Source: Burkholderiales bacterium
GTDB lineage: Bacteria > Pseudomonadota > Gammaproteobacteria > Burkholderiales > SG8-41
Direction of reading: 5' to 3'
DNA: 64,000 bases
Assembly (NCBI GenBank): GCA_019634975.1
Contig: JAHCAI010000005.1
Coordinates: 177,719 to 241,718 of the forward strand
Shown here piece after piece: positions 46,609-64,000 of the stretch. The position numbers were made by a program, and so were the translations under genes. The notes under the pieces were generated by a model. That model saw only the letters and a list, made by a program, of their open reading frames with translations. It ran no database searches and had not been told where the DNA came from. Numbering within the stretch: position 1 is the stretch's first letter; the number at the start of each line of letters is the position of its first letter.

Positions 46609-46665
46609 CCCCCGCCTCGCCTCACCCCCCCACTCCTCACCCCTCACACCTCACGGATGTAAAAC

Positions 46666-49837: not shown

Positions 49838-50836
49838 CTAATCCTCGCGAACGACGCGGAAGCCGCGCGTGTAGACCCGGATGACGACCGGACTGCCGAC
49901 GCGGTAAGCGGCGCGCAGGCCTGCCGGACCTTCGTCCCAGGCCCCGCCGCGCACCGCGCGCATGCCGCAGTCCCCGTCGCTGCGGCTGCTCCCGTCGGCA
50001 GGCGCGCCCCGATAATCGGGATTCCAGCAATCGGCCGTCCATTCGGCCGCGTTGCCGAGCATGTCATGCAGCCCGAAGGCGTTGGCAAGAAAACTGCCGG
50101 CGGGCGCGGTGTGAACATGGCCGTCGTCGCAGTCGGCGGCGTCCCAGTCCGCGGCCAAGGGAAGCGCCGCGCGCAGGCGGGCGTCCGCCCCGTTGGCATG
50201 CGCGCAGGCGGCGTGGCCGTCCGTTCCCCAGAAGCGCGGCGTGACCGAACCCGCGCGTGCCGCGTACTCCCACTCGGCCTCGCTGGGCAGGCGGTAGCGC
50301 CTGCCCGTCAACTGGCTCAGCCAGCGCACATAGGCCTCGGCATCCTCCCAGCTCACACAGGTTGCCGGATGGCGGTCGTCCTGCGGGTAACCCGGGCTGT
50401 GCCAGCCCGTTGCACTGTCGAGCCGGTGCTCGCCGCCGGCCCAGACGAAGCACGCGCCCGCGGCATGGCCGCTTGCCTCGGCGAACCGGCGAAACTCGCC
50501 GCGCGTGACCTCGAATTGGCCGATAGCGAAAGCCGCAATGCGCACACGCCGTTGCGGCAGGCTGCGGTTGCGGAAGGACTCGCCGAGGCGTTCGCGGTCC
50601 TCCTCTCCCGTTCCCGCCCCCATCAGGAACTCGCCCGGCGGAATGCGCACCATCTGCGGACAGGCCTCGCAGTCGCGAAACACTTCCGGCGATGACGCCG
50701 CACCGGTCGGACCTTCCCTCGCGCCTGCGATGCCCGCTGAGAGCAACAAGACGAGGAACAGCAGCCTGAAGGCAACGGTCTCCGGAGCGGAGACCCTGGA
50801 CCTGAAACCGGGAGCAGATTCGGATGCACGCTGCAT
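49838..50836 (-). CDS. Formylglycine-generating-enzyme (SUMF1) domain protein, secreted
   Basis: 332 aa. Signal peptide. RLPSEAEWEYAARAG, GLHDMLGNAAEWTADCW and RGGAWD motifs of the FGE-sulfatase fold. Confidence 0.8.
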   Translation of the reverse strand: MQRASESAPGFRSRVSAPETVAFRLLFLVLLLSAGIAGAREGPTGAASSPEVFRDCEACPQMVRIPPGEFLMGAGTGEEDRERLGESFRNRSLPQRRVRIAAFAIGQFEVTRGEFRRFAEASGHAAGACFVWAGGEHRLDSATGWHSPGYPQDDRHPATCVSWEDAEAYVRWLSQLTGRRYRLPSEAEWEYAARAGSVTPRFWGTDGHAACAHANGADARLRAALPLAADWDAADCDDGHVHTAPAGSFLANAFGLHDMLGNAAEWTADCWNPDYRGAPADGSSRSDGDCGMRAVRGGAWDEGPAGLRAAYRVGSPVVIRVYTRGFRVVRED

Positions 50837-50884: not shown

Positions 50885-50930
50885 TGGTGCTGACGAGAGG
50901 AGTCGAACCTCCGACCTACTGATTACGAAT
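50885..50930 (-). pseudogene. 3' half (positions 31-76) of host tRNA-Thr(CGU), displaced by the island
   Basis: The reverse strand reads ATTCGTAATCAGTAGGTCGGAGGTTCGACTCCTCTCGTCAGCACCA. Its acceptor 3' strand CGTCAGC and anticodon-stem strand TCAGT pair perfectly with the 5' half at 59564-59602. Confidence 0.85.
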
Positions 50931-50974
50931 TAATTTTTAAGGACAAAAAGAATTCTTAGAAATCAATGGCTCGT

Positions 50975-51235
50975 AATGCTATAGGGGGCAGTATTTGTCA
51001 AATAAAATCAATCGGTTAATTGCATTATTCGGTTCACAAACGACTCCCAATGTCTTCGGGCTACATCACCCCATTTGCCTACTATTTGCCTACTACACAG
51101 CATGAATTCTCATGGTTAACTGCCGTAAGTAACTGGCTATCAACCGTGTTGGTCGCCGATACCCCCATTTGGGTACTGCGACGATGGCCAGTTCCGGTCT
51201 GGCGAAACACGGATGCCTGAAATTGTTTGAAGCCC
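50975..51235 (+). pseudogene. Integrase-proximal arm plus truncated, frame-disrupted integrase 5' remnant
   Basis: 50975-51235 aligns by eye with 54767-~55010 (the upstream region and first ~40 codons of integrase 54891-56129). Both start AATGCTATAGGGG...TGTCAAATAAA...TGCATT...CTATTTGCC, and the ATGs (51102 / 54891) sit at equivalent distances. In the remnant TTAACTGCCGTAAG aligns with TTAACAGCCGCGAG and CCGATACCCCC with CCGATACCGGT. No intact frame remains. Confidence 0.65.
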
Positions 51236-51248
51236 GGTAGTGCGTTGG

Positions 51249-52661
51249 CTACATGAAGCTCCGGAAATCATAAACCGTATCGACCATGTCTGGATTCTGC
51301 TGAATGATTCTGGCAAATCGGCTTGAATACACCAGTGTAACCGGCAACTTCTTGTAAAGCGTATTGTTGTTCCAGTCCATTTTCGTCAAGCCGAGAATGC
51401 CCGCACAGGTGTCGTGCCACCCCCCAGCACCACTAAAACGCCTTACAAGTATCGGGGACGGAGTTGGTTTTAGAGGGCCTTCTTTGTATACGTTGTAGTG
51501 CGCGGCCTGCATGTGTACGCCTACAACACTCCCTTGCGTCCACAACAAGACCTCGCTCCCCTTCAGCGGCATATAGGTCCCCCGTGGCACAGGATATCGG
51601 TGGGGCTGTGGCGGATTTTTATTGTCGTAACGCATGGCTTTCCAGTCAGTCTCCCGGACGATTTGCACAAGTTCAACTTCGGTAGCATCGTTGAAGCTGT
51701 CGAGTGCCCCAAGTATCTCTTCCTCCTTGAACTCAGTGTTCTTGTGAATGGTGATCTTGGAGGGGAGCCTGCCAGCGTGTCCGTGTTGATAGATTCGGAG
51801 GCTGCGGGAGAGCACGGATTGCATTTCATAGTAAGAGAGATATGGATTATGACTGCGGTCTTTCGTGAACTCCTTCGCATCGTAAGCAACGAACTGGAAG
51901 CCAGTTCCATCAGGATCAAACACCTGACTGCAGCAAGTGCTGTATTGATTTCCGTCCTTGTTAGATTTAATTGCGTAGCCAATGCCGATATAAGCTTCCT
52001 TGGGTGCGAGGCCAGTCAATTTCCAAGGTAGGCCGTTCGCCTTTGCATACAAAGCAACGCTTAAACCCCACATTACGTTCGCTCTGCATGTTCTCTCCAG
52101 ACTTTGCTGTCGAATAATCTGGAGGGGAATTCCCAATGGTGCAGTGAACGCCTTCAGGTAATCGTGAAAGTCAAAATTTTCACCCTCGAAGCACGCCTCC
52201 CAGCTCTGAGGAAGATAAAGCATCGCCACATCAAATTGACCGCGCGACGGCAAGAGTTGAGAAATGTTCTGAAGCAATTCATTTGCGAGCGAAAATTTGT
52301 CGGCATTGCCCGCATAACGCTCCAATTGATCGGATAAGGGCACGGTGATCGCGCTATCGACATCAGAGACCGGAATTCGGAACAGCTTTTCAAATCCGGG
52401 GTACTCTGGGTAGTAGTTAGTTGCCTCTCGCGGCTTTGCGGTTTTTCCGAGTTCTTTGATCAAGCCCTGTATCGCGCGTACATGCTGACGCGGCGCAAGA
52501 ATTGCGAGTCGAATTTTCGACGGCACGCCAAACTTTAGACCATATGGTCCGTGCTCGATCAAGCCGCGGAGAGGGTGAGTGTCCACCTTCTTAGCGTGGA
52601 ACATCAGCTCCGGCTCCGGCAGCGTGGTATAGCTAGTGAGTTCACCGGCACGATTAGTCAT
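51249..52661 (-). CDS. Short prokaryotic Argonaute (MID-PIWI only, catalytically degenerate)
   Basis: 470 aa. MID pocket-like HDYLK...LQIIRQ...[17 protein letters not shown]-like half with [13 protein letters not shown] and [13 protein letters not shown] at the positions of the DEDX residues. Its ATG overlaps the upstream SIR2 gene stop (ATGA). Confidence 0.85.
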
Positions 52662-54418
52662 TGACGCGCCCGCCTGCAGAAAGCAGTTTCAGTCCCAACA
52701 GTGAAGGCGGGGTTCTCTAGTTCGTCCCCCCTATCGAATGGCCGCAATTGGACTGTATTGGTCTGATCGGCGGTCCCGAGCAAAATTTGACACCATGCTG
52801 ACAGGAGCTTATCTGTCTTGGCGTTAAAACGATCTGACCGGCGCTCGTCGAGTAGCGCTGTTGCGTCCTGCCGGGCCCACTTGGGCCATATCCAGATATC
52901 TGGCGTGACCATAAGCCAGCATCGGCCATCCTTCTCTTCGATTGCTATCTGCGCTGCTTCCGCCCATCCAACCTGTTCTTGCTCTGGATGCTCCGGCGTG
53001 GCTTTCGTAAAAAGTCCCGGAACGCTGCCATGTACCTTGCCGAGAACCTGAGACAATGGTTGCAGGTCCGACTGATCTTCGGCGTTTCGGTCTGCGATAA
53101 GAAATACACGGTGATGCGCGGAGCGAAGTAATAGTGACTTCCCGCGAGCAAGAGTGCGTCCCAGCGCCTTTTCAAGAAAGGCTTTTAGATATAGGTGATC
53201 TTTGAGATTTTGCGTTGCCACTGAAATATCATACGGCTGTACGCCAGCGTAACGATCACCGAACACCTGCTTCGCCACGTCCCTGCCGCCCCACATAAGA
53301 ACTGCTTCGCCTTTCGTAAGGATTAGCTGGTTTTTCGCTATCCTCTCAGCCTCATTAAGTTCGTTCCATTCCGGAATTACTGAAAACTTAGCTTCAAGAC
53401 ACTTATCCGGCAGTATTAGAGGTAGCGCATTTACACGCACTATCGGCCCACTGTTTCCGGGCGTGGGCATCGCAATGCTCACTTGGGAGTGCTGGGTCTT
53501 TTGCACCTTGGCGATGAATCTCGGATCCTTGTCAGGAATGTTTCGCCAGAGCCGCAAAAGCAATGTGTCGAACGTTTCAATTGAAATGTACTCAGCCTTA
53601 ACGCCCCGGGCTTTAGCAGCATCAAGCAGTCGCTGAACTGACGCAGGTGCTGAGCTGCCAATCCCGGTCCAGTAAAGGCCGTGGGGAAACGGATTGCTCG
53701 TCTGAAGCACGGATTGCAGCAAGGTCATGACGATGCTATCTCGGCCGCTGTATCCAGTTACGATCAGCCCAAATCTGTTGCAAGCATTGACAAAGCAGCG
53801 ACCCAACTCAGCATCATGTGAACGAAGGTCATCTGTTAGATTTTTGATGCTCTCGTACCGAAAATCGCCATGTAGCTTGCAATAAATTGGGTAGTTTTCG
53901 TTGTCCAGTGCGGCGTTTGCTGCGTATGAGCCTTCCAGATGGAATGCGGATAGGGACAACCCTGCAACTTCAGCAACGGATTTCTCAACAACGCTGTCAA
54001 AGTTCGTCGTGAATACCACTCGCGCATGGCCCATCGCCATAAGCGCTCCAAGTACGCGGTTTCCAACTGACAAAGCAACGCGATCCTCAGATAGCATCGC
54101 TCGTAAGTAAGCACTTTGTCTTTCATGATCTGAGCCGAATATGCGTTCAAAATAAGTTGAATATTCGTCGTCGGCCCAAGCATCAGGAAAGCCTTTGGAC
54201 AGCATGTATGACTGAATCTTGCTTTTTACTGCATCGTTCTGAATATCCTGTTGCGTGACCTCTTGATTTTCTTCCCTGCAGTAATGGCGCCGCTTCAGGT
54301 CCCAGATGATGTCCGTCGCAGTCGGCAGACCGGAGGACCGTGACGACCCTGCTCCAAGAAACCACGCAAAACGTTGAGGGCGCTCCGTGATAATTGATAT
54401 TAGCTCACTGTAGTCCAT
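52658..54418 (-). CDS. SIR2-APAZ protein (NADase effector partner of short pAgo)
   Basis: 586 aa. SIR2-type motifs [13 protein letters not shown] (aa 20-32), VVFTTNFD (aa 134-141), CKLHGD (aa 180-185) and GYSGRD, then a ~330-aa non-SIR2 C-terminal region of APAZ size. Confidence 0.85.
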
Positions 54419-54890
54419 GGCTCTGCAGATTTCCCTCAGTCAAGCGGTAGCAATAATACGGCAACCAAAGCACTGTAGCAGATGCCGGCAAAGATCACTG
54501 TCAGGTTGCAATCGCACAATTCCCTCTCGCAATCAAAACTTGTTGATTACGCGTAAGTTGGGTTGGATTAAAAATCGCCCAGTCATAACTCAATAAATCA
54601 CTGCTGCAAATTACGCTTACCGCAGATCGCGGCCCTCCATCATCCCGCCACGGCATTGCTTGCCGCCCGCTTTAAGCAAACACCGCTAAAAAATATGAAC
54701 GAAATGCGAATTGCATATTTAGTCTGGTCATCGACCACATAAGTATTGTTATAAACAACATTTTCCAATGCTATAGGGGTTATGGATTGTCAAATAAATC
54801 AAGAACTTAACTGCATTTTTTGCTTGACCCCTGACTACTAACGTCTTAGGATAACTATTCACTTCGCTCACTATTTGCCAGTATTTTCGG

Positions 54891-56129
54891 ATGTCGGTAT
54901 TCAAATTAACAGCCGCGAGAATTGCCGCCCTACCGATACCGGTATTAGGTCAGGACTTTTATCGCGACTCCAAGCAACCGGGCTTCGGCGTCCGGGTTAG
55001 CCCGGGCGGAACCATTTCCTTTTTCGCCGAAGGTCGCGTTAACGGCAAAACCAGACGCATCACAATTGGCCCTTGGCCTCAACTGACGGTTGAGGAGGCA
55101 AGGAGAATCGCCAAGGTCATCCTCAGCGAACTCATACGAGGGATTGACCGAAAAGCCGAGGAAAGAAACGCGCTGGTCAAAACCGTAACGCTTGCGGAAG
55201 CATTCAAGCAGTTCAAAGAAACACGAAAATCTCTCGCAGACCGCACAAAAGCCGATTACACCTACATGTTCAACCGGCTAATTCCAGATTGGATGAAATT
55301 GCCGTGGGTATCGATCACTCGGGAAATGGTACTCAAGCGCCACGCTGAGGTGGGCAAGGTAAACGGCTGGGCAACCGCGAACCACCTGATGCGGGCGCTG
55401 GGGTCAGTGTTCCGCTCCTCAATGAAATACTACCGGGCACCAGATGGCTCGATGTTCGTCCAAGAGTGCCCGACATCAATCCTGAGCGATGCCCACGCAT
55501 GGTTTCCAAAAAACACCAAGGATTCCTATATCAAGCCTCATCAGCTCAAGGCTTGGTTCGATGCAGTGCAATTAATTGCAAACAAAGTCGCCGCCGACTA
55601 TCTGATATTTCTGGTCCTGACCGGCCTGAGGCGATCTGAGGGCGCCAGTCTGCGGTGGGATTGTGTTGATCTGATAAGCCGCACACTCACCATCGAGATT
55701 ACCAAGAACAAGCGGAAACACGTGATTCCAATTTCGGATTACCTCCTTACCATGCTGACCCGTCTCAAGGAAAACGCGATCAACGATTTCGTATTCCCCG
55801 GCAATGGCAAGACCGAGCATATCGTGGAAATAAAGAAAAACGTTGCTTCTGTAGTCAAGGCATCGCAGGTGAGTTTCACCCTTCATGACCTGAGAAGGAC
55901 GTTTATTACCATCGCAGAAAGCCTCGACATCTCCGCCTACGCGGTAAAGCGTCTAGCGAATCACTCCATGGGCGGTGATGTAACTGCAACGCATTACATT
56001 GTTTTCGATATCGAACGCCTGCGCGACCCGATGGAAAAGATCAACCGCTACATCCTTCGAAACGCCGGGATACTGCCCACCGCCGAAGTTGTTCCGCTAA
56101 CCGCTCAAGCCTCGCAGGTCGCGGCCTAA
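54891..56129 (+). CDS. Tyrosine recombinase, P4-like integrase with N-terminal arm-binding domain
   Basis: 412 aa. N-terminal FYRDSKQPGFGVRVSPGGTISFF (DUF4102-type). Catalytic R (TGLRRSE), HxxR (LHDLRRTF) and H...Y (ANHSMGGDVTATHY). Confidence 0.9.
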   Translation: MSVFKLTAARIAALPIPVLGQDFYRDSKQPGFGVRVSPGGTISFFAEGRVNGKTRRITIGPWPQLTVEEARRIAKVILSELIRGIDRKAEERNALVKTVTLAEAFKQFKETRKSLADRTKADYTYMFNRLIPDWMKLPWVSITREMVLKRHAEVGKVNGWATANHLMRALGSVFRSSMKYYRAPDGSMFVQECPTSILSDAHAWFPKNTKDSYIKPHQLKAWFDAVQLIANKVAADYLIFLVLTGLRRSEGASLRWDCVDLISRTLTIEITKNKRKHVIPISDYLLTMLTRLKENAINDFVFPGNGKTEHIVEIKKNVASVVKASQVSFTLHDLRRTFITIAESLDISAYAVKRLANHSMGGDVTATHYIVFDIERLRDPMEKINRYILRNAGILPTAEVVPLTAQASQVAA

Positions 56130-56218
56130 TTTTTTACCGAAATTTTGATGAGACGTGAGTAACAGACATGAATTGACATAGCTTTATCTCACCCCCCCCG
56201 TAAACAGGGGGAAATTCT

Positions 56219-56281
56219 GGGCCATCGCAAAGGAGTGCGGCACACCTCAAAGAGGTGAACTTCTTTGCGATGGCCCTTTTT
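56219..56281 (+). terminator. Long-stem rho-independent terminator after the integrase
   Basis: gggccatcgcaaag ... ctttgcgatggccc followed by T5. The inner loop holds a second small hairpin (cacctc-aaa-gaggtg). Confidence 0.65.
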
Positions 56282-56305
56282 GTTTGACACCTGAAGGAGA
56301 CGCAC

Positions 56306-56473
56306 ATGAATAGACCAGTAATTCAAAAGGAAATCCCCACGAAGTATCTGCGGGAGGCCGAGGCAACCGCCTACCTCGGATTCAAGTCGCCTCGCACGCT
56401 TCGGAACATGCGGTTCCGGGGTAATGGCCCGTCATTTCTAAAACAGGGAAGGCACGTCATCTACCCGACGTGA
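56306..56473 (+). pseudogene. AlpA/Xis-like small HTH gene, C-terminus replaced by the IS insertion
   Basis: RBS gaaggaga. MNRPVIQKEIPTKYLREAEATAYLGFKSPRTLRNMRFRGNGPSFLKQGRHVIYPT*. The TGA stop is the first 3 nt of the IS left inverted repeat. The same frame resumes after the IS (57661-57699: TSWASKQPREKH*) just before a terminator. Confidence 0.65.
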
Positions 56474-56534
56474 TCCCCAAGAACAGTAGCACTTGAAATT
56501 GGAGTCCGATCTATTATGCAACGGGAGGTCGGAC

Positions 56535-56798
56535 ATGAAGAAGCGGTTCACGGAAGAGCAGATCATCGGTTTCCTGCGGGAAGCTGAGGCCGGAGTGGCA
56601 GTTAAGGATCTGTGCCGGCGGCACGGGTTCTCGGAGGCGAGCTACTACTTGTGGAAGGCGAAGTTCGGCGGCATGAGCGTGCCGGAGGCAAAGCGGCTGA
56701 AGGCGCTGGAGGCCGAGAACGCGCGGCTGAAGAAGCTCCTGGCCGAGACGCTGCTGGAAGCGGAGATCACCAAGGAGGCCCTGCGCCGAAAGTGGTGA
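56535..56798 (+). CDS. IS3-family transposase OrfA (HTH)
   Basis: MKKRFTEEQIIGFLREAEAGVAVKDLCRRHGFSEASYYLWKAKFGGMSV...leucine zipper. RBS gggagg. Confidence 0.88.
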   Translation: MKKRFTEEQIIGFLREAEAGVAVKDLCRRHGFSEASYYLWKAKFGGMSVPEAKRLKALEAENARLKKLLAETLLEAEITKEALRRKW

Positions 56799-57649
56799 CC
56801 GTGCCAGCGCGGCGCGAGCTGGTGCGGTATGCGCAGTCGAAGGGTTTGAGCGAACGCCGGGCATTGCGGCTGGCGTGTTTGAGCCCGAGCGTGCTGCGCT
56901 ACGAGCGCAAGGATGACGGCAATGGGCCGCTCAGGGAGCGGATTGCTGCCCTGGCCCATCACCATCGGCGGCACGGCTACCGGATGATCCACTTGCGGCT
57001 CACCCAGGAGGGGTGGGCGGTGAACCTGAAGCGGGTGCGACGGCTGTATCGGGAGCAGAACCTGATGGTGCGGCGGCGCAAACGGAAGAAGGTTGGATCT
57101 GGAGAGCGGCAGCCGCTGGTGCGGCCGGCCCGGGCGAACGAGGTGTGGAGCATGGACTTCGTGTTTGACCGGCTGGCGAGCGGACGGTCGTTGAAGTGTT
57201 TGACGGTGGTGGACGATGCCACGCAGGAAGCGGTGGCGATTGCGCCGGACACGGCGATCTCGGGGATGGCGGTGGCGAGGATACTGGAGCAATTGAAGGT
57301 GAGCCGCGGATTGCCCAGGGTGATTCGCTCGGACAACGGACGGGAGTTCTGCGGACGGGCGATGGCAGTCTGGGCGCACGAGAACGGCGTGCAGTTGCGC
57401 TTCATCGAGCCGGGCAAGCCCAACCAGAACGCCTACGTCGAGTCCTTCAATGGGAGACTGCGCGACGAATGCCTGAACGAGCACTGGTTCACGACCCTGC
57501 CGCATGCACGGGCGGTGATCGAGGAATGGCGCCGGGATTACAACGAGCGGCGGCCGAAGAAGCAGTTGGGCGGGTTGCCGCCGGCGGTTTACGCCGCACG
57601 CATGGCAGCCCAATTGAACAGCGCGGACTATAATGCAAACTGCTACTAA
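56789..57649 (+). CDS. IS3-family transposase OrfB (DDE domain), expressed as OrfAB by -1 frameshift
   Basis: The -1 frame (track ORF 56612-57649) contains WSMDFVFD, VIRSDNGREF and YVESFNGRLRDECLN (DDE). The likely slip is at cgA AAG (56789-56792), just before the orfA stop. Confidence 0.85.
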   Translation, partial: KVVTVPARRELVRYAQSKGLSERRALRLACLSPSVLRYERKDDGNGPLRERIAALAHHHRRHGYRMIHLRLTQEGWAVNLKRVRRLYREQNLMVRRRKRKKVGSGERQPLVRPARANEVWSMDFVFDRLASGRSLKCLTVVDDATQEAVAIAPDTAISGMAVARILEQLKVSRGLPRVIRSDNGREFCGRAMAVWAHENGVQLRFIEPGKPNQNAYVESFNGRLRDECLNEHWFTTLPHARAVIEEWRRDYNERRPKKQLGGLPPAVYAARMAAQLNSADYNANCY

Positions 57650-57702
57650 AATTGGGGATCACGTCGTGGGCTTCAAAGCAGCCGCGAGAAAAGCATTGAA
57701 AT

Positions 57703-57737
57703 AAAAAAGGGCCGTCGTGTGACGGCCCTTCTTGTTT
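57703..57737. terminator. Bidirectional terminator hairpin
   Basis: A6-gggccgtc-gtgt-gacggccc-ttcttgttt. It serves minus-strand gene 57755-58252 (T-run on minus) and the original Xis-like gene end on plus. Confidence 0.7.
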
Positions 57738-57754
57738 GGTGCTGACGAAAATAA

Positions 57755-58252
57755 TTAGGAAGTCGCAAGCCGCTGATAGCCTTCTTGGCGATCCAGGTTT
57801 TTCAGGATATCTTGTTTTATTGTGTCGCTATTAGATTTACCAATTGAAATCCCTCTTTGCATAGCAAGGGCCTTTAATTCGGCTCGCGATAGTTTTTTTG
57901 ACAAAAGAGCCCGGATTTGCTCATTCGTGAGATTGGGCGGTATTTCGATTGGCTCTCTCTTTGCTTTGCGCGGCCCCTTCTTTCGTCCAGACGACAATAA
58001 GACACGGAGAACTGCATCTGAGGAGGCCGACTCGAGAAACGTAATTACGTGATCGAGATGCTGGATAGTTTCCGCCGTTCGCCCCCCAAAAGATGGGTTT
58101 GTTAGGCCAGCATGCAGATCTTGCAAGGAAGTTATTAACGCAGACAACCCGTTGATAGTTTCCTCTTTCAAATCGGGCTGATTTACCAAATAGAGATCGT
58201 CTCTAATCTGACTTAGCCGAGCGAGGAGATTTGGATTTTTATTGGATTTCAT
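57755..58252 (-). CDS. Hypothetical 165-aa protein; helical N-domain, basic linker, C-terminal SAP/HeH-like motif (putative DNA-binding partner of the ParA-like ATPase)
   Basis: The start lies 2 nt after the ParA-like stop. GRKKGPRKAKREP linker, then LTNEQIRALLSKKLSRAELKALAMQRGISIGKSNSDTIKQDILKNL, reminiscent of SAP/Rho-N/HeH helix-extended-helix motifs. Confidence 0.6.
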   Translation of the reverse strand: MKSNKNPNLLARLSQIRDDLYLVNQPDLKEETINGLSALITSLQDLHAGLTNPSFGGRTAETIQHLDHVITFLESASSDAVLRVLLSSGRKKGPRKAKREPIEIPPNLTNEQIRALLSKKLSRAELKALAMQRGISIGKSNSDTIKQDILKNLDRQEGYQRLATS

Positions 58253-58254
58253 CT

Positions 58255-59166
58255 TTAACCAAGCTTTTCACGAAATTCTTCGGCCATGCGGCGATAAAGC
58301 ACATCATTTTGCGAACCGGAGGAGTTGAGAAACACTGGTAACTGCTCTGTAGTCGCCTCTCGTATGTCTTTGTAATCCTCGGTATGCGTATCGAAACATT
58401 TATCCTTGAAGTTCGGCATTCCTCTGACAATCGCCATTTGCTCCCGCGCCACAATTTGCTGTCGCCCAGCAGTCACATTTACCTTCACAAAGCAGAGGTA
58501 CGAAGGTAGCCTCCTGGCACCCTCGCTATTAGGATCAACGATTTGCTCTGCCAAATTCCTTTCCTTTAATAACTGGCGGACTTTTCGATCTAAAAATGTT
58601 ACGCCAACCGTTGAGAAGTGGTCCGGCATAAGGGTCACCAAATAACCATCGCTCGCGTATAAGGCGTTTTGGGTCGCCAAATAAAGATTTGGCGGGCAAT
58701 CAATCAATACGTAGTCATATTGATCTGCAATTTCTTTTATGGCATTCAAAAGTATCGAGCGTTGATCAAGGTGTGTTTGCGCCACCTCTCGTATCGTTGT
58801 GGCCGCATGCGTCTTTGACTGCAGTCTCAAATCAATATCGAGCAACTCAATAGTAGACGGAACCAAATCGACATTCGATAACTCTGGACGAGCCATCGGT
58901 TTTTTCCAAATTATGTCTTCTAGCGGACTCGTCTTCTGATCGAGATACGCGCTGTAAACTGTCTCTAAAGAACCATTAACCTTGACTCTATGCTCCCAAC
59001 TTTTGAAATCACAGCACAAGAATGTCAGATTTGTTTGGGGATCAGCATCGATCAATAAAACCTTCTTTTTTGGCTCGAACATTGCAAGGGCACAGCCAAT
59101 ATGAAAAGTAGTTGTCGTCTTACCGACTCCCCCTTTGTAGTTAATGAACGAAATTACCTTTGCCAC
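58255..59166 (-). CDS. ParA/MinD-family (deviant Walker A) ATPase
   Basis: GTG start after GAGGAGG. VISFINYKGGVGKTTTT (KGGxxK[ST]), LLIDADPQ, YDYVLIDCPP. Confidence 0.85.
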   Translation of the reverse strand: MAKVISFINYKGGVGKTTTTFHIGCALAMFEPKKKVLLIDADPQTNLTFLCCDFKSWEHRVKVNGSLETVYSAYLDQKTSPLEDIIWKKPMARPELSNVDLVPSTIELLDIDLRLQSKTHAATTIREVAQTHLDQRSILLNAIKEIADQYDYVLIDCPPNLYLATQNALYASDGYLVTLMPDHFSTVGVTFLDRKVRQLLKERNLAEQIVDPNSEGARRLPSYLCFVKVNVTAGRQQIVAREQMAIVRGMPNFKDKCFDTHTEDYKDIREATTEQLPVFLNSSGSQNDVLYRRMAEEFREKLG

Positions 59167-59332
59167 TATATCCTCCTCGCTGGCCCAGAATAGAAAAGGC
59201 CTGTGGAATTGATATTAATTGCATAAAGCATGCCCTTCACCGAATGAGTTCTTCGATAATCGGTGACCTCATGTATTGAGGCGCCCTCAACAGGCGCAAC
59301 CCTGCTTACAGGATACTCTGCTCTATGCAGAT

Positions 59333-59362
59333 AAAAAAAATGACCGCCACAAGGGCCGTCAT
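59333..59362 (-). terminator. Rho-independent terminator after the island-borne tRNA
   Basis: The minus strand reads atgacggcc-cttgt-ggcggtcat (one mismatch) followed by T8. Confidence 0.65.
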
Positions 59363-59371
59363 TTTTAGGTT

Positions 59372-59447
59372 TGGTGCCGGAAATAGGAGTCGAACCTACG
59401 ACCTTCGCATTACGAATGCGCTGCTCTACCAACTGAGCTATTCCGGC
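59372..59447 (-). tRNA. tRNA-Thr (anticodon CGU), complete, island-borne
   Basis: GCCGGAATAGCTCAGTTGGTAGAGCAGCGCATTCGTAATGCGAAGGTCGTAGGTTCGACTCCTATTTCCGGCACCA. It forms a 76-nt cloverleaf with a perfect acceptor stem, a TTCGACT T-loop and an encoded CCA. Confidence 0.9.
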
Positions 59448-59563
59448 ATTTTCTGCTCTACCGCCTACTATCTGCCTACTTGAAAAGCAGGTTCTTTATA
59501 GAAGTCGCAAAAAAACCTTATCCTTCAATTCCTTATCTCAACCTGCAGGAGGGAGACGTTCTT

Positions 59564-59602
59564 ATTACGAATCAGTTGCTCTACCAACTGAGCTACGTCA
59601 GC
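59564..59602 (-). pseudogene. 5' half (positions 1-39) of host tRNA-Thr(CGU)
   Basis: The reverse strand reads GCTGACGTAGCTCAGTTGGTAGAGCAACTGATTCGTAAT, then non-tRNA sequence (AAGAACGTCTCC...). It complements the 3' half at 50885-50930. Confidence 0.85.
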
Positions 59603-59636
59603 CCGGGGACGCGAATTTTACCGCAAACACCCGTTT

Positions 59637-60053
59637 TCAGGGCGCGCGCACCCTGACGATGACGTCTATGCCCTCGGTTTTCGTGCCGGGCGGCAGGGCG
59701 GGCATGCCGCTGATGGTGAGGTCCCCGGCCGCGATATCGGTGATCTCGCCGGTATCGACGTTGTAGAGATGGTGGTGCGGTTCCGTATTGGGATCGTAAA
59801 ACACCCGTTTCGGATCGACGATCACTTCGCGGATCAGGCCGCGGTCGCGGAAAAGATTCAGCGTGTTGTAAACCGTCGCCTTGGAAGTTTCCGCAAAGCG
59901 CTCGTTGGCGAGCGCGAGAATCCGGTCAGCGGACAGATGCTCACAGCGGCTGAACAGCACATGGGCGATCTCCAGCCGCTGGTGGGTCGGCGAAATGCCG
60001 TGTTCGCGCAAACGCTCGACCAAGGCTTCCCGGCTATAAGACATTGCTTTCAT
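59637..60053 (-). CDS. Fur-family transcriptional regulator (Cys-poor, HHH motif)
   Basis: 138 aa. wHTH region SPTHQRLEIAHVL...SADRIL...SKATVYNTLNLFRDRGLI, then EPHHHLYNVDTGEI. No CxxC pairs. Confidence 0.8.
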   Translation of the reverse strand: MKAMSYSREALVERLREHGISPTHQRLEIAHVLFSRCEHLSADRILALANERFAETSKATVYNTLNLFRDRGLIREVIVDPKRVFYDPNTEPHHHLYNVDTGEITDIAAGDLTISGMPALPPGTKTEGIDVIVRVRAP

Positions 60054-60252: not shown

Positions 60253-60687
60253 ATGACACGACTTGCCCGAGGATTCACCCTGGTCGAACTGCTGATCGTG
60301 ATCGCCATCATTGGCGTCATCGCCGCCATCGCGGTCCCGCAATATGGCGACTACGTCACCCGCAGCAAGCTCACCGAGGCCTTCGCGACGCTTTCCGAGC
60401 ACCGGGTGAAAATGGAGCAGTTTTTCCAGGATAACCGCACCTACGTCGGCGCCTGCACCGCCGGCACCGTTGCTCCGCCGCCGACCGGGCGCTATTTCAC
60501 CTATGCCTGCTCGAACCTGACGGCCACGACTTTCACGGTCACGGCCACCGGCGTTACTGCACAGGGCACAGGCGGCTTCGTCTATACCGTCAACCAGGCC
60601 AACACCCGGGCCACCACCGGCGTCGCCACCGGCTGGAACGGCGCGGGCTCGAGCTGCTGGGTCACCAACAAGGCCGGCGGATGCTGA
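60253..60687 (+). CDS. Type IV pilin (PilE-like)
   Basis: Prepilin leader MTRLARG|FTLVELLIVIAIIGVIAAIAVP with Gly-1/Phe+1/Glu+5. C-terminal Cys pair. Confidence 0.8.
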   Translation: MTRLARGFTLVELLIVIAIIGVIAAIAVPQYGDYVTRSKLTEAFATLSEHRVKMEQFFQDNRTYVGACTAGTVAPPPTGRYFTYACSNLTATTFTVTATGVTAQGTGGFVYTVNQANTRATTGVATGWNGAGSSCWVTNKAGGC

Positions 60688-61283
60688 ACGCTCGCCACAG
60701 CGGCTTCAGCCTGGTCGAACTGATCGTCGGCCTGGCCGTCATTGCGCTGCTGATTTCGCTGGGCGTGCCGCAATACGCCACGTTCACGGCGAATGCGCGC
60801 ATCCGCGCCACTACCGAGGGCGTCAACGCCGGCCTCAACCTGGCGCGCGCCGAAGCCGTCAAGCGCAACGCGCGGGTGGAGATGGTGCTCACCGACGACC
60901 TCCCGGTCGAGGCGCTGGTCAACGCCGTGACGCCCTCGACCAGCGGCACCAACTGGATGGTTCGCGAGTGGGTGCCCAGCACCAATTCCTTCAATTTCAT
61001 CGAGGGCAAGGCCGGCGCCGAAGGATCCGGCCGCGAGGAGTCCGCCGTGATCGTCACGTCGTCAAGCACCGATGCCGGCTATGACGGACGGGTGATTTTC
61101 ACCGGTTTCGGCGCCATGGCGATCGGCCAGCCGGTGACCTTCCAGTTCACCTACCCGGCGGCCGGCGCCTGCGCTGCGGCCAGCGGGCCTTTGCGCTGCC
61201 TCAACATCAACATATCGCCCGGCGGACAGATTCGCGTCTGCGATCCCAAGGTCACCGACACCAAGGACACGCGGGCCTGCTGA
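60681..61283 (+). CDS. GspH/FimT-family minor pilin
   Basis: Leader MLNARHSG|FSLVELIVGLAVIALL. ARAEAVKRNARV motif of FimT/FimU-type proteins. Confidence 0.7.
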   Translation: MLNARHSGFSLVELIVGLAVIALLISLGVPQYATFTANARIRATTEGVNAGLNLARAEAVKRNARVEMVLTDDLPVEALVNAVTPSTSGTNWMVREWVPSTNSFNFIEGKAGAEGSGREESAVIVTSSSTDAGYDGRVIFTGFGAMAIGQPVTFQFTYPAAGACAAASGPLRCLNINISPGGQIRVCDPKVTDTKDTRAC

Positions 61284-61290
61284 GGAAACG

Positions 61291-61788
61291 ATGATCAAAC
61301 ATTCCCATGCACCGCGGCACCGGCAGAAGGGCGTCATGCTGCTCGAAGCCCTGATCGGCATCCTGATCTTCTCGATCGGCATCCTCGCCATGGTCGGCAT
61401 ACAGGCGGCCGCGTTCTCGGCCAGCGCGGATGCCAAGAACCGCGCCGATGCCGCCGCGTTTGCCAGCGAAATCATCTCGCAGATCTGGATGGGCGTGGAC
61501 CGCACCTCGGACGCCAGCATCATCACCTCGCTGAACAACTTCCAGCTGAACACGGGAGGCAGCGACTGCAATTTCACCGGCGGCCAGGCGGACAACACCA
61601 ACACCGCGGTGACGCAGTGGGTCAGCGCGGTCACCGACTCCGCCACCGGTCTGCTCGGCTCCACGGCGGGCATGCAGCAGATCGTCGTTTCCTCCGCCGA
61701 CCTCAACCGCGTCACGGTCACCGTCTGCTGGCAGACGCCCCAGGACGCGACCCGGCGCCGTCACCAGGTGATTTCCAATGTGTTCTGA
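61291..61788 (+). CDS. pilV: Type IV pilus minor pilin PilV
   Basis: Leader ...RQKG|VMLLEALIGILIFSIGILAM. Assigned by size and position in the operon. Confidence 0.65.
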   Translation: MIKHSHAPRHRQKGVMLLEALIGILIFSIGILAMVGIQAAAFSASADAKNRADAAAFASEIISQIWMGVDRTSDASIITSLNNFQLNTGGSDCNFTGGQADNTNTAVTQWVSAVTDSATGLLGSTAGMQQIVVSSADLNRVTVTVCWQTPQDATRRRHQVISNVF

Positions 61789-62959
61789 TCCCAGCAGGCG
61801 CAGCCTGTCAGCGCGCCGGACACAGTCCGGCCTCAGCCTCGTCGAAATCATGGTCGGCGTGCTGATCGGCATGATCGGCATCATCGTGATTTTCCAGATG
61901 CTGGCCACCACCGAGGAACGCAAGCGCACGGCCACCGCCGGCAGCGACGTGCAGGTCACCGGCATCATCGCCCTCAGCACGCTGGAACGCGATATCCGTG
62001 AAGCCGGCTACGGCTTCTCTTCCGCCGCCTACGATACCGGCATCACCCCGGTCATGGGCTGCACCGTCAACGCTTTCGACGCCGGGCGCCCGACCACCGC
62101 CTTCACCTACCGCCTGAGCCCGATCCAGATCATCCAGGGAACAGGCACGGCCTCCGATACGGTCATCGTGCTGCGCGGCAGCGGCGGCACCTTCCCCGCA
62201 GCCCATGTCTTCACCGAATCGACGGACACCTCGAAAAAAACCCGCGGCCGCGCCGGCATCTCCCCGCGGGATATCCTGCTGGTGGCGAGAACGACACCGA
62301 CGCTGGACTGCATGACGGTCGAAATCACCGATGTCACCGACGCCGATGCACTGACCATCCGCCACAACCAGGGCAGCTACAACTACACGGTTTACCTGCC
62401 TGACGGCAGCACATCCACCGAATCGCGCATCGCCCGCCACAACAATGCGGCGCCCCCGATCACCTTCAGTGCCGGCTACCTGTTCAACCTCGGCAACAGC
62501 CCCCGCCGCAACATCTGGACCGTGCAGAACGGCCGTTTGCAGGTGACCAACGACCTGCTTTACCAGGACACCGACGGCAACGGCGTCAACGATCCGGTGG
62601 AAGTGGCCGACAACGTCATCACGCTGCAGGCCGAATACGGCCTCGACGCCAACAACAACGGCCGCATCGAGGCCGGGGAATGGACAACCGCCGACCCGGC
62701 GACCACCGTCGCCTGGGCCAATCTGCTTGCCGTGCGCGTGGGCATGCTGGTGCGCTCCGGCCAGTTCGAACGCGATGCGGTCACCACCACCGTGCCGTCC
62801 TGGGCCGGCGGACAGTTCGTGATCACCAATCTTGACGGCAGCGCCAGCGGCACCACGCCGTCGGATCCCGCCAACAACTGGCGCCATTACCGCTACCGCG
62901 TCTACGAAACCGTGATTCCCCTGCGCAACATGCTGTGGGGCTCGCAGATCCGTCCCTGA
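61778..62959 (+). CDS. pilW: Type IV pilus assembly protein PilW
   Basis: Leader ...TQSG|LSLVEIMVGVLIGMIGII. ~390 aa and overlaps the pilV end. Confidence 0.65.
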   Translation: MCSDPSRRSLSARRTQSGLSLVEIMVGVLIGMIGIIVIFQMLATTEERKRTATAGSDVQVTGIIALSTLERDIREAGYGFSSAAYDTGITPVMGCTVNAFDAGRPTTAFTYRLSPIQIIQGTGTASDTVIVLRGSGGTFPAAHVFTESTDTSKKTRGRAGISPRDILLVARTTPTLDCMTVEITDVTDADALTIRHNQGSYNYTVYLPDGSTSTESRIARHNNAAPPITFSAGYLFNLGNSPRRNIWTVQNGRLQVTNDLLYQDTDGNGVNDPVEVADNVITLQAEYGLDANNNGRIEAGEWTTADPATTVAWANLLAVRVGMLVRSGQFERDAVTTTVPSWAGGQFVITNLDGSASGTTPSDPANNWRHYRYRVYETVIPLRNMLWGSQIRP

Positions 62960-62972
62960 TGGCGCAACAGCC

Positions 62973-63545
62973 ATGGAGCATTCCCCCATGAAAACCATCC
63001 GCAAGCAAAAAGGTGTCGTCCTGTTCATCGCGCTGATCGTGCTGGTCGCGATGTCGCTGGCCGGCGTCGCACTGTGGCGCTCGATCGGCACCGGGGTGCT
63101 GATCGCCGGCAACATCGCGATGCAGCGCGGCGCGGTCACCTCCTCGGACGTCGGCATCGAAAGCGCGCGCACCTGGCTGATGGCGCAGGGGCCGACCGTG
63201 CTCAACAACACCCAGCCAAGGGCTTACGTCTCCAGCTGGGACGAGCGCTTCGATGCCACCACGTTCAACTGGGATGCCCAGGGCAGCACGCCGCCGGTCA
63301 CCGATTCCGCCGGCTTCTCGGTGCAGTACGTGGTCCACCGCCTGTGCAGCGTCCCCAATGCCGGCCACAATGCACCGAACCAGCAATGCCTGACCGTCAA
63401 TGTGGCCGGCGGCAGCAGCGGCCGCGCCGCCGGCAGCTACGGCATCATGCCGCTGTCGGGCACCACCTACATCTATTACCGCATCACCGCGCGGGCGCTG
63501 GGCCCGCGCAATACCGTGTCCTATACCCAGTCAATCATGTACTGA
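62973..63545 (+). CDS. pilX: Type IV pilus minor pilin PilX
   Basis: KQKGVVLFIALIVLVAMSLAG (no Glu+5, typical for PilX). The start is ATG 62973 or 62988. Confidence 0.6.
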   Translation: MEHSPMKTIRKQKGVVLFIALIVLVAMSLAGVALWRSIGTGVLIAGNIAMQRGAVTSSDVGIESARTWLMAQGPTVLNNTQPRAYVSSWDERFDATTFNWDAQGSTPPVTDSAGFSVQYVVHRLCSVPNAGHNAPNQQCLTVNVAGGSSGRAAGSYGIMPLSGTTYIYYRITARALGPRNTVSYTQSIMY

Positions 63546-63576
63546 CCGCGGAATCCGTCCGCACCTGGAGCTCCTC

Positions 63577-64000
63577 ATGAACGCCCGAACCCTCTCGACC
63601 ACCGGCCTGTGCGCCCTTGCGCTGGCGGCCGGCCTCGCAGCCGCCCCCGTGGCAATGGCAGCGATGACGGATATTGCCAACGTGCCGCTCGCCAGCAGTT
63701 CGACCACGGTGGTCAAGCCGAACGTCCTGTTCACGCTCGACGACTCCGGCAGTATGGGCTGGGGCTACATGCCGGACAGCATCCGCGACCGCTACGACAG
63801 GACCGGCTACAAGAGCCATCTCTGCAATTCGATTTATTACAACCCGAACGTCGTCTACGTACCGCCGAAAAACGCCGACGGCACGGATTTTCCGAATGCC
63901 AGTTTCACCGCCGCGCGCTACGACGGCTTCAACTCCGGCTCGTCCACGGTCAACCTCAGCACCAGCTTTCGCTCTTACGACGACAACCTGAACTGGAACA
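63577..64000 (+). CDS. pilY1: PilY1-like tip adhesin, N-terminal part (runs off window)
   Basis: Not in the track (no stop). ATG 63577. Signal peptide, then IANVPLASSSTTVVKPNVLFTLDDSGSMGWGYMP (vWA/MIDAS-like DxSxS), as in the PilY1 N-terminus. Confidence 0.7.
   Translation, partial: MNARTLSTTGLCALALAAGLAAAPVAMAAMTDIANVPLASSSTTVVKPNVLFTLDDSGSMGWGYMPDSIRDRYDRTGYKSHLCNSIYYNPNVVYVPPKNADGTDFPNASFTAARYDGFNSGSSTVNLSTSFRSYDDNLNWN

Follow-up and report, generated by a model that had tools for sequence, protein, structure and literature searches.

A pair of adjoining genes on contig JAHCAI010000005.1 of a Burkholderiales bacterium (NCBI GenBank assembly GCA_019634975.1) raises the question of what kind of system they encode and by what route it came to its present place. 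The DNA analyzed comprises 64,000 nucleotides (positions 177,719 to 241,718 of the contig) and is termed the window in the following; all coordinates refer to it. Both genes lie on the minus strand in the same orientation, the first encoding a SIR2-APAZ effector of 586 amino acids (aa; 52658..54418) and the second a short prokaryotic Argonaute (pAgo) of 470 aa (51249..52661). Sequence comparison and analogy with a characterized orthologue make it very probable that they constitute a two-gene SPARSA system of the split-gene clade S1B, i.e., an orthologue of GsSir2/Ago that is carried as cargo of a genomic island and would act by an NADase mechanism. An interpretation previously derived from the letters of this DNA and termed the sequence-only reading below had arrived at the SPARSA-type class, and this assignment agrees with a significant SIR2 match and with the absence of an intact DEDX tetrad and of a PAZ domain.

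With respect to the effector, the Pfam profile SIR2_2 matches the 586-aa protein with an E-value of 1.7e-12 and 48.1 bits against a curated cut-off of 24.5, the PADLOC model Aga_SIR2-PNTD1-PNTD2 covers it from end to end (E 3.9e-179; aa 11-584 on model positions 2-557 of 558), and PDB chains 8in8_B/8jl0_A align with aa 12-581 at 43.9% identity (E 1.2e-145). The predicted SIR2 NADase domain extends approximately over aa 1-305 (53504-54418, minus strand) and APAZ over aa 327-586 (52661-53440, minus strand); the presence of the latter is apparent from the alignment, which spans the APAZ region of GsSir2 (residues 331-580). The earlier identification of SIR2 and APAZ is thereby confirmed, and the motifs on which it had been based occur at the residues then named, i.e., at aa 20-32, 134-141 (VVFTTNFD) and 180-185 (CKLHGD). 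Neither Pfam nor PADLOC revealed a TIR domain in the Argonaute's partner protein, and the effector is SIR2.

Residues that had been mutated in GsSir2/Ago or make contacts in it were collected from four papers and mapped onto the proteins of the window via the alignments. The catalytic dyad N142/H186 of GsSir2 is retained as N139/H183, and the same is true for the NAD+-binding residues D230 (here D227) and S227/R229 (S224/R226), for the cofactor loop G25-A37 (G22-A34) including A26/A37 (A23/A34), and for Y168 (Y165), which is critical for the tetramer. Mutation of N142/H186 abolishes the function of GsSir2/Ago (PMC10781750; PMC11452484), as does mutation of D230 (bioRxiv 10.1101/2021.12.14.472599), of S227, R229, A26 and A37 (PMC11452484) and of Y168. 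An Asn-His dyad is common to sirtuin deacetylases as well (PMC10781750), and the Sir2 protein could on this basis be viewed as an Argonaute-regulated protein deacetylase or ADP-ribosyltransferase instead of an enzyme depleting NAD+. We consider this highly improbable: in the 44%-identical orthologue, helix alpha10 blocks the peptide-substrate channel and the reaction yields ADP-ribose with bulk depletion of NAD+ (PMC11452484; bioRxiv 10.1101/2021.12.14.472599), and the best profiles for the protein studied here are Argonaute-associated SIR2 models, which score above the sirtuin models.

The 470-aa partner was equally well assigned. It matches PADLOC model pAgo_I for class I short pAgos over virtually the full profile (E 1.3e-193; model positions 4-457 of 457) and GsAgo (PDB 8in8_C) with 55.1% identity over aa 3-470, corresponding to GsAgo residues 3-473 (E 8.6e-182). 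As the sequence-only reading had stated, there is no room for N and PAZ domains; the protein consists of MID (aa 1-218; 52008-52661) and a presumably catalytically dead PIWI domain (aa 219-470; 51252-52007), both on the minus strand, just as GsAgo consists of MID (1-218) and PIWI (219-473). Its expectation of a Piwi protein is borne out end to end by pAgo_I and GsAgo, whereas the Pfam Piwi profile reaches only 17.8 bits and stays below its cut-off. None of the NCBIfam models names either protein of the operon and none reaches its cut-off for the Argonaute, which is listed as "nuclease PIN" in the public record MBX3662610.1, its partner appearing as "SIR2 family protein". Since the NCBIfam models remain below their cut-offs and Pfam Piwi below its gathering score, standard annotation misses short pAgos of clade S1B.

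The MID pocket for the 5'-phosphate of the guide, which had been suspected from the pattern of motifs, is intact, with H166, K170, Q181 and K207 invariant in 27 aligned relatives. No residue that had been shown in GsSir2/Ago to be required for hydrolysis or binding of NAD+, for binding of the guide 5'-end or for duplex sensing is altered. Conservation extends to the guide 5'-end contacts (F158, D164, H166, K170, Q181, I182, R190, N195 and K207), to the metal ligands N434 of GsAgo (here N431) and the C-terminal methionine M473 (M470), to N272/Y274 at the tip of the PIWI sensor loop, which are identical in GsAgo, and to the target-splaying residue Y359 (Y356). All of the Argonaute motifs quoted in the sequence-only reading could be placed: HDYLK at 166-170, LQIIRQ at 180-185, a further one at 203-213, YIGIGYA at 224-230, ITIHKN at 303-308, another at 438-450 and DFRSFM at 465-470.

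Three of these motifs had been proposed to occupy degenerate slicer positions. As reference we used the active Argonaute of Thermus thermophilus (TtAgo, encoded on plasmid pTT27), the catalytic residues of which (D478/E512/D546/D660) were confirmed in its sequence. BLASTP and hhalign agree in aligning TtAgo D546 (LRDG) with N308 (HKNT) and D660 (LAD) with S447 (YSS); D478 (AVGFD) corresponds to G228 (YIGIG) if the neighboring hhalign block is extended gap-free, while E512 falls in the sensor loop of the 470-aa protein. The three proposed correspondences are therefore right, albeit with marginal statistics, and across the relatives the tetrad columns are filled by S/G, N/S and K/S/Q/G/H. Judged by these alignments, the protein is an Argonaute without the DEDX slicer tetrad, three of the positions (G228, N308, S447) being non-acidic. 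Papers on GsSir2/Ago likewise describe GsAgo as catalytically dead. A long catalytic pAgo was ruled out on the basis of the length of 470 aa, the lack of N and PAZ domains and the non-acidic tetrad positions. Human AGO2, the sequence of which was verified against PDB 4z4h/4ola, was rejected as a DEDX reference, as hhalign returned a probability of 0.33 and the global alignment scored below shuffled sequences (z = -1.2).

Both proteins align over their full length with the two chains of one and the same complex (8in8, 8jkz, 8jl0, 8k87, 8k88 and 8y7z). This complex is GsSir2/Ago from Geobacter sulfurreducens (Gs), because the papers on that system cite 8JKZ and 8JL0 and because their residue numbering fits the chains. 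In clade S1A the effector and the short pAgo are fused, while clade S1B is defined by two separate genes (PMC11370952), and separate genes with sir2-apaz upstream of ago are what is found here, the stop codon of the first overlapping the start codon of the second in the tetranucleotide ATGA at 52658-52661 (minus strand; TCAT on the plus strand). The ORFs and their overlap, already noted in the sequence-only reading, were read directly. The likeness to GsSir2/Ago comprises gene order (sir2-apaz first), domain layout and lengths (586 and 470 aa compared with 587 and 473 aa in Gs), in addition to the catalytic dyad, NAD+ binding, the MID contacts with the 5'-phosphate and 5'-AU, the sensor-loop tip and the C-terminal methionine. 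On the other hand, identity amounts to only 43.9% for Sir2-APAZ and 55.1% for Ago, and several residues at the dimer and tetramer interfaces, some nucleic-acid contacts, the host and the genomic context differ.

All steps of the mechanism outlined in the following are transferred from the characterized orthologue. Sir2-APAZ and Ago would be translationally coupled and form a heterodimer, as orthology and the conserved pairing of the genes suggest. The MID pocket, consisting of H166, K170, Q181 and K207 together with a metal held by N431 and with M470, would hold a small guide RNA by its 5'-phosphate, with a probable preference for 5'-AU (F158, D164, R190), and the guide would pair with complementary single-stranded DNA of an invader. 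The PIWI sensor loop (D261-S276, with N272/Y274 at its tip) is predicted to read the guide/target duplex, and its sensing of the duplex would lead to oligomerization and to alignment of N139 and H183 of Sir2, whereupon Sir2 would hydrolyze NAD+ and the infected or transformed cell would cease to grow or die. Argonaute itself should be unable to cut nucleic acid. SPARTA systems (TIR-APAZ, clade S2A) resemble this scheme in that a heterodimer of a short pAgo and an APAZ protein uses an RNA guide against a DNA target and responds by oligomerization and NAD(P)+ depletion, features that are anticipated here by analogy. In contrast to SPARTA, however, the effector is SIR2 instead of TIR, and the Argonaute matches the SPARTA structures in the PDB with E-values of 1e-18 to 1e-21 only, versus 1e-182 for GsAgo.

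Three results count against assignment to a functional system of the GsSir2/Ago type. First, the alignments behind the slicer correspondences are only marginally significant (BLASTP E 0.003; hhalign with the family profile E 0.01). Second, several residues at oligomer interfaces differ from their counterparts in Gs, i.e., H158, N244, Q192 and Q297 of Sir2 (here S155, S241, E189 and N293) and H104 of Ago (A104). Alanine mutants of Gs Sir2 H158, N244 and Q297 and of Ago H104 had lowered NADase activity, and the changes to S155, S241, N293 and A104 may mean that the geometry of assembly is different; they leave no room for a different kind of system. Nucleic-acid contacts are altered as well, namely Y530 in APAZ (D529) and N184, H310 and S358 in Ago (R184, E310 and R355). 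Third, no promoter was identified for the operon. The region between the divergent genes sir2-apaz and int (54419..54890), by its location presumably the site of both promoters, yielded a single sigma-70-like site in a consensus scan (54824-54852, plus strand), which faces int, whereas shuffled sequences contained more such sites; promoter and terminator scans in general gave no more matches than shuffled sequence.

The missing sigma-70 promoter, the deviating interface residues and the partly immobilized appearance of the island, in which a possible excisionase ORF is directly adjoined by an IS3 element, might be combined into the view that the operon merely rides along, silent or in decay, and has ceased to be expressed or to function in its host. 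We regard this as improbable, since no catalytic or ligand-binding residue has been lost, start/stop coupling is intact, and both ORFs are of full length, free of frameshifts and stop codons and 100% identical in independent assemblies of the same strain from six samples; the promoter scan, made with a simple consensus tool of low accuracy, carries no information on this point. Look-ups of the exact Ago and Fur proteins returned matches from the same strain only. In one of the assemblies Sir2 is called with 460 aa; this was rejected as a mutation, for it reflects an alternative start chosen by the gene caller, and the single mismatch is located at position 46651.

The assignment to SPARSA gains further weight from the distribution of the gene pair among relatives. 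A scan with one genome per species returned at least 133 relatives, the best 80 of which were compared. In these, Ago is 57-71% identical and Sir2-APAZ about 51% identical (median), and the hosts belong to the Alpha-, Beta- and Gammaproteobacteria, Acidobacteriota, Nitrospinota and other phyla. In 78 of the 80 loci, ago is immediately preceded by a co-oriented Sir2-APAZ gene, the remaining two lacking upstream sequence; these uncharacterized SPARSA operons include those of Candidatus Thiodiazotropha (metagenome-assembled genome, L001) and Methylophilus rhizosphaerae (L004). The operon studied here is thus one more uncharacterized orthologue in a family that is already known, is widespread and has been solved structurally. 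None of the 80 loci shares the island backbone with it; the eight integrase matches are distant (25-36% identity), the ParA-like protein and the 165-aa protein of the island (see below) have no match in these loci, and conserved non-coding cassette boundaries or flanks were not found among them. As neither backbone nor flanks are shared, the SPARSA module moves independently of the present island.

How the operon reached its current position is revealed by the surrounding DNA. It is situated in an island of 8,642 bp (50931-59572) with a GC content of 51.1% compared with 65.3% in the rest of the window, values dropping from about 65% to about 50-51% across 51000-60000, and the operon had correctly been described as richer in AT than its host. 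The island splits the host gene for tRNA-Thr(CGT) on the minus strand. Its displaced 3' part forms the left boundary (50885..50930) and includes a 9-bp core, ATTACGAAT, at 50922-50930, while the right boundary (59564..59602) is made up of a second copy of the core (59564-59572) and the 5' part of the tRNA (59573-59602). The core at the two island ends falls within the anticodon loop. ARAGORN fails to detect a tRNA in the existing sequence of the left or the right junction, but recognizes a canonical 76-nt tRNA-Thr(CGT) when the 46 nt at 50885-50930 are joined to the 30 nt at 59573-59602. The former show 100% identity to the corresponding segment of the intact tRNAs of relatives. Metagenome contigs from close relatives exhibit the same neighborhood with an intact tRNA and without integrase, Sir2-APAZ, Ago and ParA-like gene. 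In contig L106, for example, the order is acyl-CoA dehydrogenase (97% identical), PDZ protease (89%), SDR (96%), tRNA-Thr, Fur (88%) and pilin (88%). The empty site in syntenic relatives demonstrates horizontal acquisition, which had originally been postulated on other grounds: the operon arrived as cargo of an island that inserted into the tRNA-Thr(CGT) gene.

In addition, the island carries an intact tRNA-Thr(CGT) of its own (59372..59447, minus strand), which was detected by ARAGORN, scores 70.5 bits with the Rfam tRNA model and is identical to the disrupted host tRNA at 60 of 76 positions. The Rfam scan of the island returned nothing but tRNA, and the 64-kb window contains no other tRNA. 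With regard to the island, not the operon, this arrangement recalls the tRNA-dependent lysogeny of actinobacteriophages (Guerrero-Bustamante and Hatfull 2024, PMC10865867). Common to both are a tyrosine integrase, a short core within a tRNA gene (9 bp in the island, about 10 bp in the phages), the lack of a restored tRNA at the junction and a tRNA of matching isotype that the element itself carries; the element described here differs in being a non-phage island of 8.6 kb from a Burkholderiales bacterium. We tentatively put forward, as a possibility that falls short of an even chance, that this small defense island of a beta-proteobacterium, integrating through its 9-bp core, destroys the host tRNA-Thr(CGT) and supplies its own, and hence follows a tRNA-dependent strategy reported to date from actinobacteriophages alone.

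The remaining genes of the island are few. Divergently from the operon, an intact tyrosine integrase of 412 aa is encoded at 54891..56129 on the plus strand (Phage_integrase E 5.7e-17, Arm-DNA-bind_3 E 3.3e-13, PHROG 1 E 1e-49). It is followed on the same strand by an ORF of 55 aa (56306..56473) with a weak match to HTH_17 (excisionase/AlpA-like; Pfam E 0.0012, below the curated cut-off), the 3' end of which overlaps the left inverted repeat, beginning at 56466, of an IS3-family insertion sequence (IS; 56466..57666, plus strand; HTH_Tnp_1 E 2.6e-25, rve E 6.8e-21, rve_3 E 2.7e-30). The latter is bounded by imperfect inverted repeats of 50 nt and has a host-like GC content of 63.5%; its insertion may have impaired excision and left the island immobile. 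A ParA-like ATPase of 303 aa (58255-59166, minus strand; Pfam AAA_31 E 6.6e-42, PHROG 164 ParA-like E 4.6e-46) and, downstream of it on the same strand, a 165-aa protein without family assignment (57755-58252) are probably a maintenance or partition pair of the island; PADLOC gave no credible match for the two. The three backbone proteins of the island are all singletons at 90% clustering. Scans with the Pfam, PADLOC and PHROG libraries uncovered no other gene in the island resembling an effector or sensor, in accordance with the sequence-only reading, which had seen none beside the operon.

That the SPARSA module is carried by a mobile island, next to the probable maintenance pair with its ParA-like ATPase, bears on its likely targets. 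The system could mainly be directed against plasmids or mobile elements competing with the island or the host and not primarily against phages, with unchanged biochemistry. In line with this, GsSir2/Ago and CcSir2/Ago in Escherichia coli block only plasmids with a CloDF13 origin (bioRxiv 10.1101/2021.12.14.472599), and SPARSA is reported to favor 5'-AU guides derived from ColE-like plasmids (PMC11452484). Sequence, however, does not discriminate between a plasmid and a phage as target, and we consider such a specialization unlikely, if clearly worth bearing in mind.

The operon had furthermore been described as flanked by one decayed and one intact integrase. The intact enzyme is the one at 54891..56129, whereas the decayed one does not exist: a tblastn search with the intact integrase against 50931-51300 gave a best E-value of 0.59, and what is present instead is a duplicate of about 85 nt of non-coding sequence. 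Its left copy (50975..51059, plus strand) is 72% identical over 85 nt to the right copy (54767..54850, plus strand; blastn E 7e-8), which lies directly upstream of the integrase gene. The two belong to a wider, diverged direct duplication, in which 50931-51095 at the island end resembles 54720-54885 in the int-upstream region, and the SPARSA cassette lies between the duplicate copies. This arrangement suggests that the cassette may have arrived by recombination between related islands or that a tandem array may have collapsed. The sequence TGCCTACT occurs at 51076-51083, 51087-51094 and 59473-59480, i.e., three times in the 64-kb window compared with 0.46 expected, and none of the copies is farther than about 170 nt from an island end. 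They are candidate arm-type sites for the integrase with its Arm-DNA-bind_3 domain.

Two observations concern the host DNA on either side of the island. To the left, between SDR and tRNA, a gene of the FGE-sulfatase family (49838-50836) with host-like GC content is absent from the empty-site contigs L106, L109 and L096; it is a second, separate difference in gene content at the island site. To the right, Fur is flanked by a minor-pilin cluster of the host type IV pilus (60253-64000) encoding a pilin (N_methyl/ComP_DUS), a GspH-like protein and PilW, with PilY1 following in the longer contig past the end of the window.

For the biology of Argonautes the operon is of little consequence, as structures and mechanism of its family have been worked out and more than 100 close relatives are at hand; the record "nuclease PIN" illustrates that short pAgos continue to escape automated annotation. 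The locus is a clean and fully delimited case in which an island that targets a tRNA gene has moved a defense system and in which relatives provide the empty site. Its only unusual feature is that the island breaks its tRNA target and brings along a replacement with the same anticodon. Provided that no further tRNA-Thr(CGT) exists in the host, the tRNA of the island would stabilize the defense island against imprecise loss.

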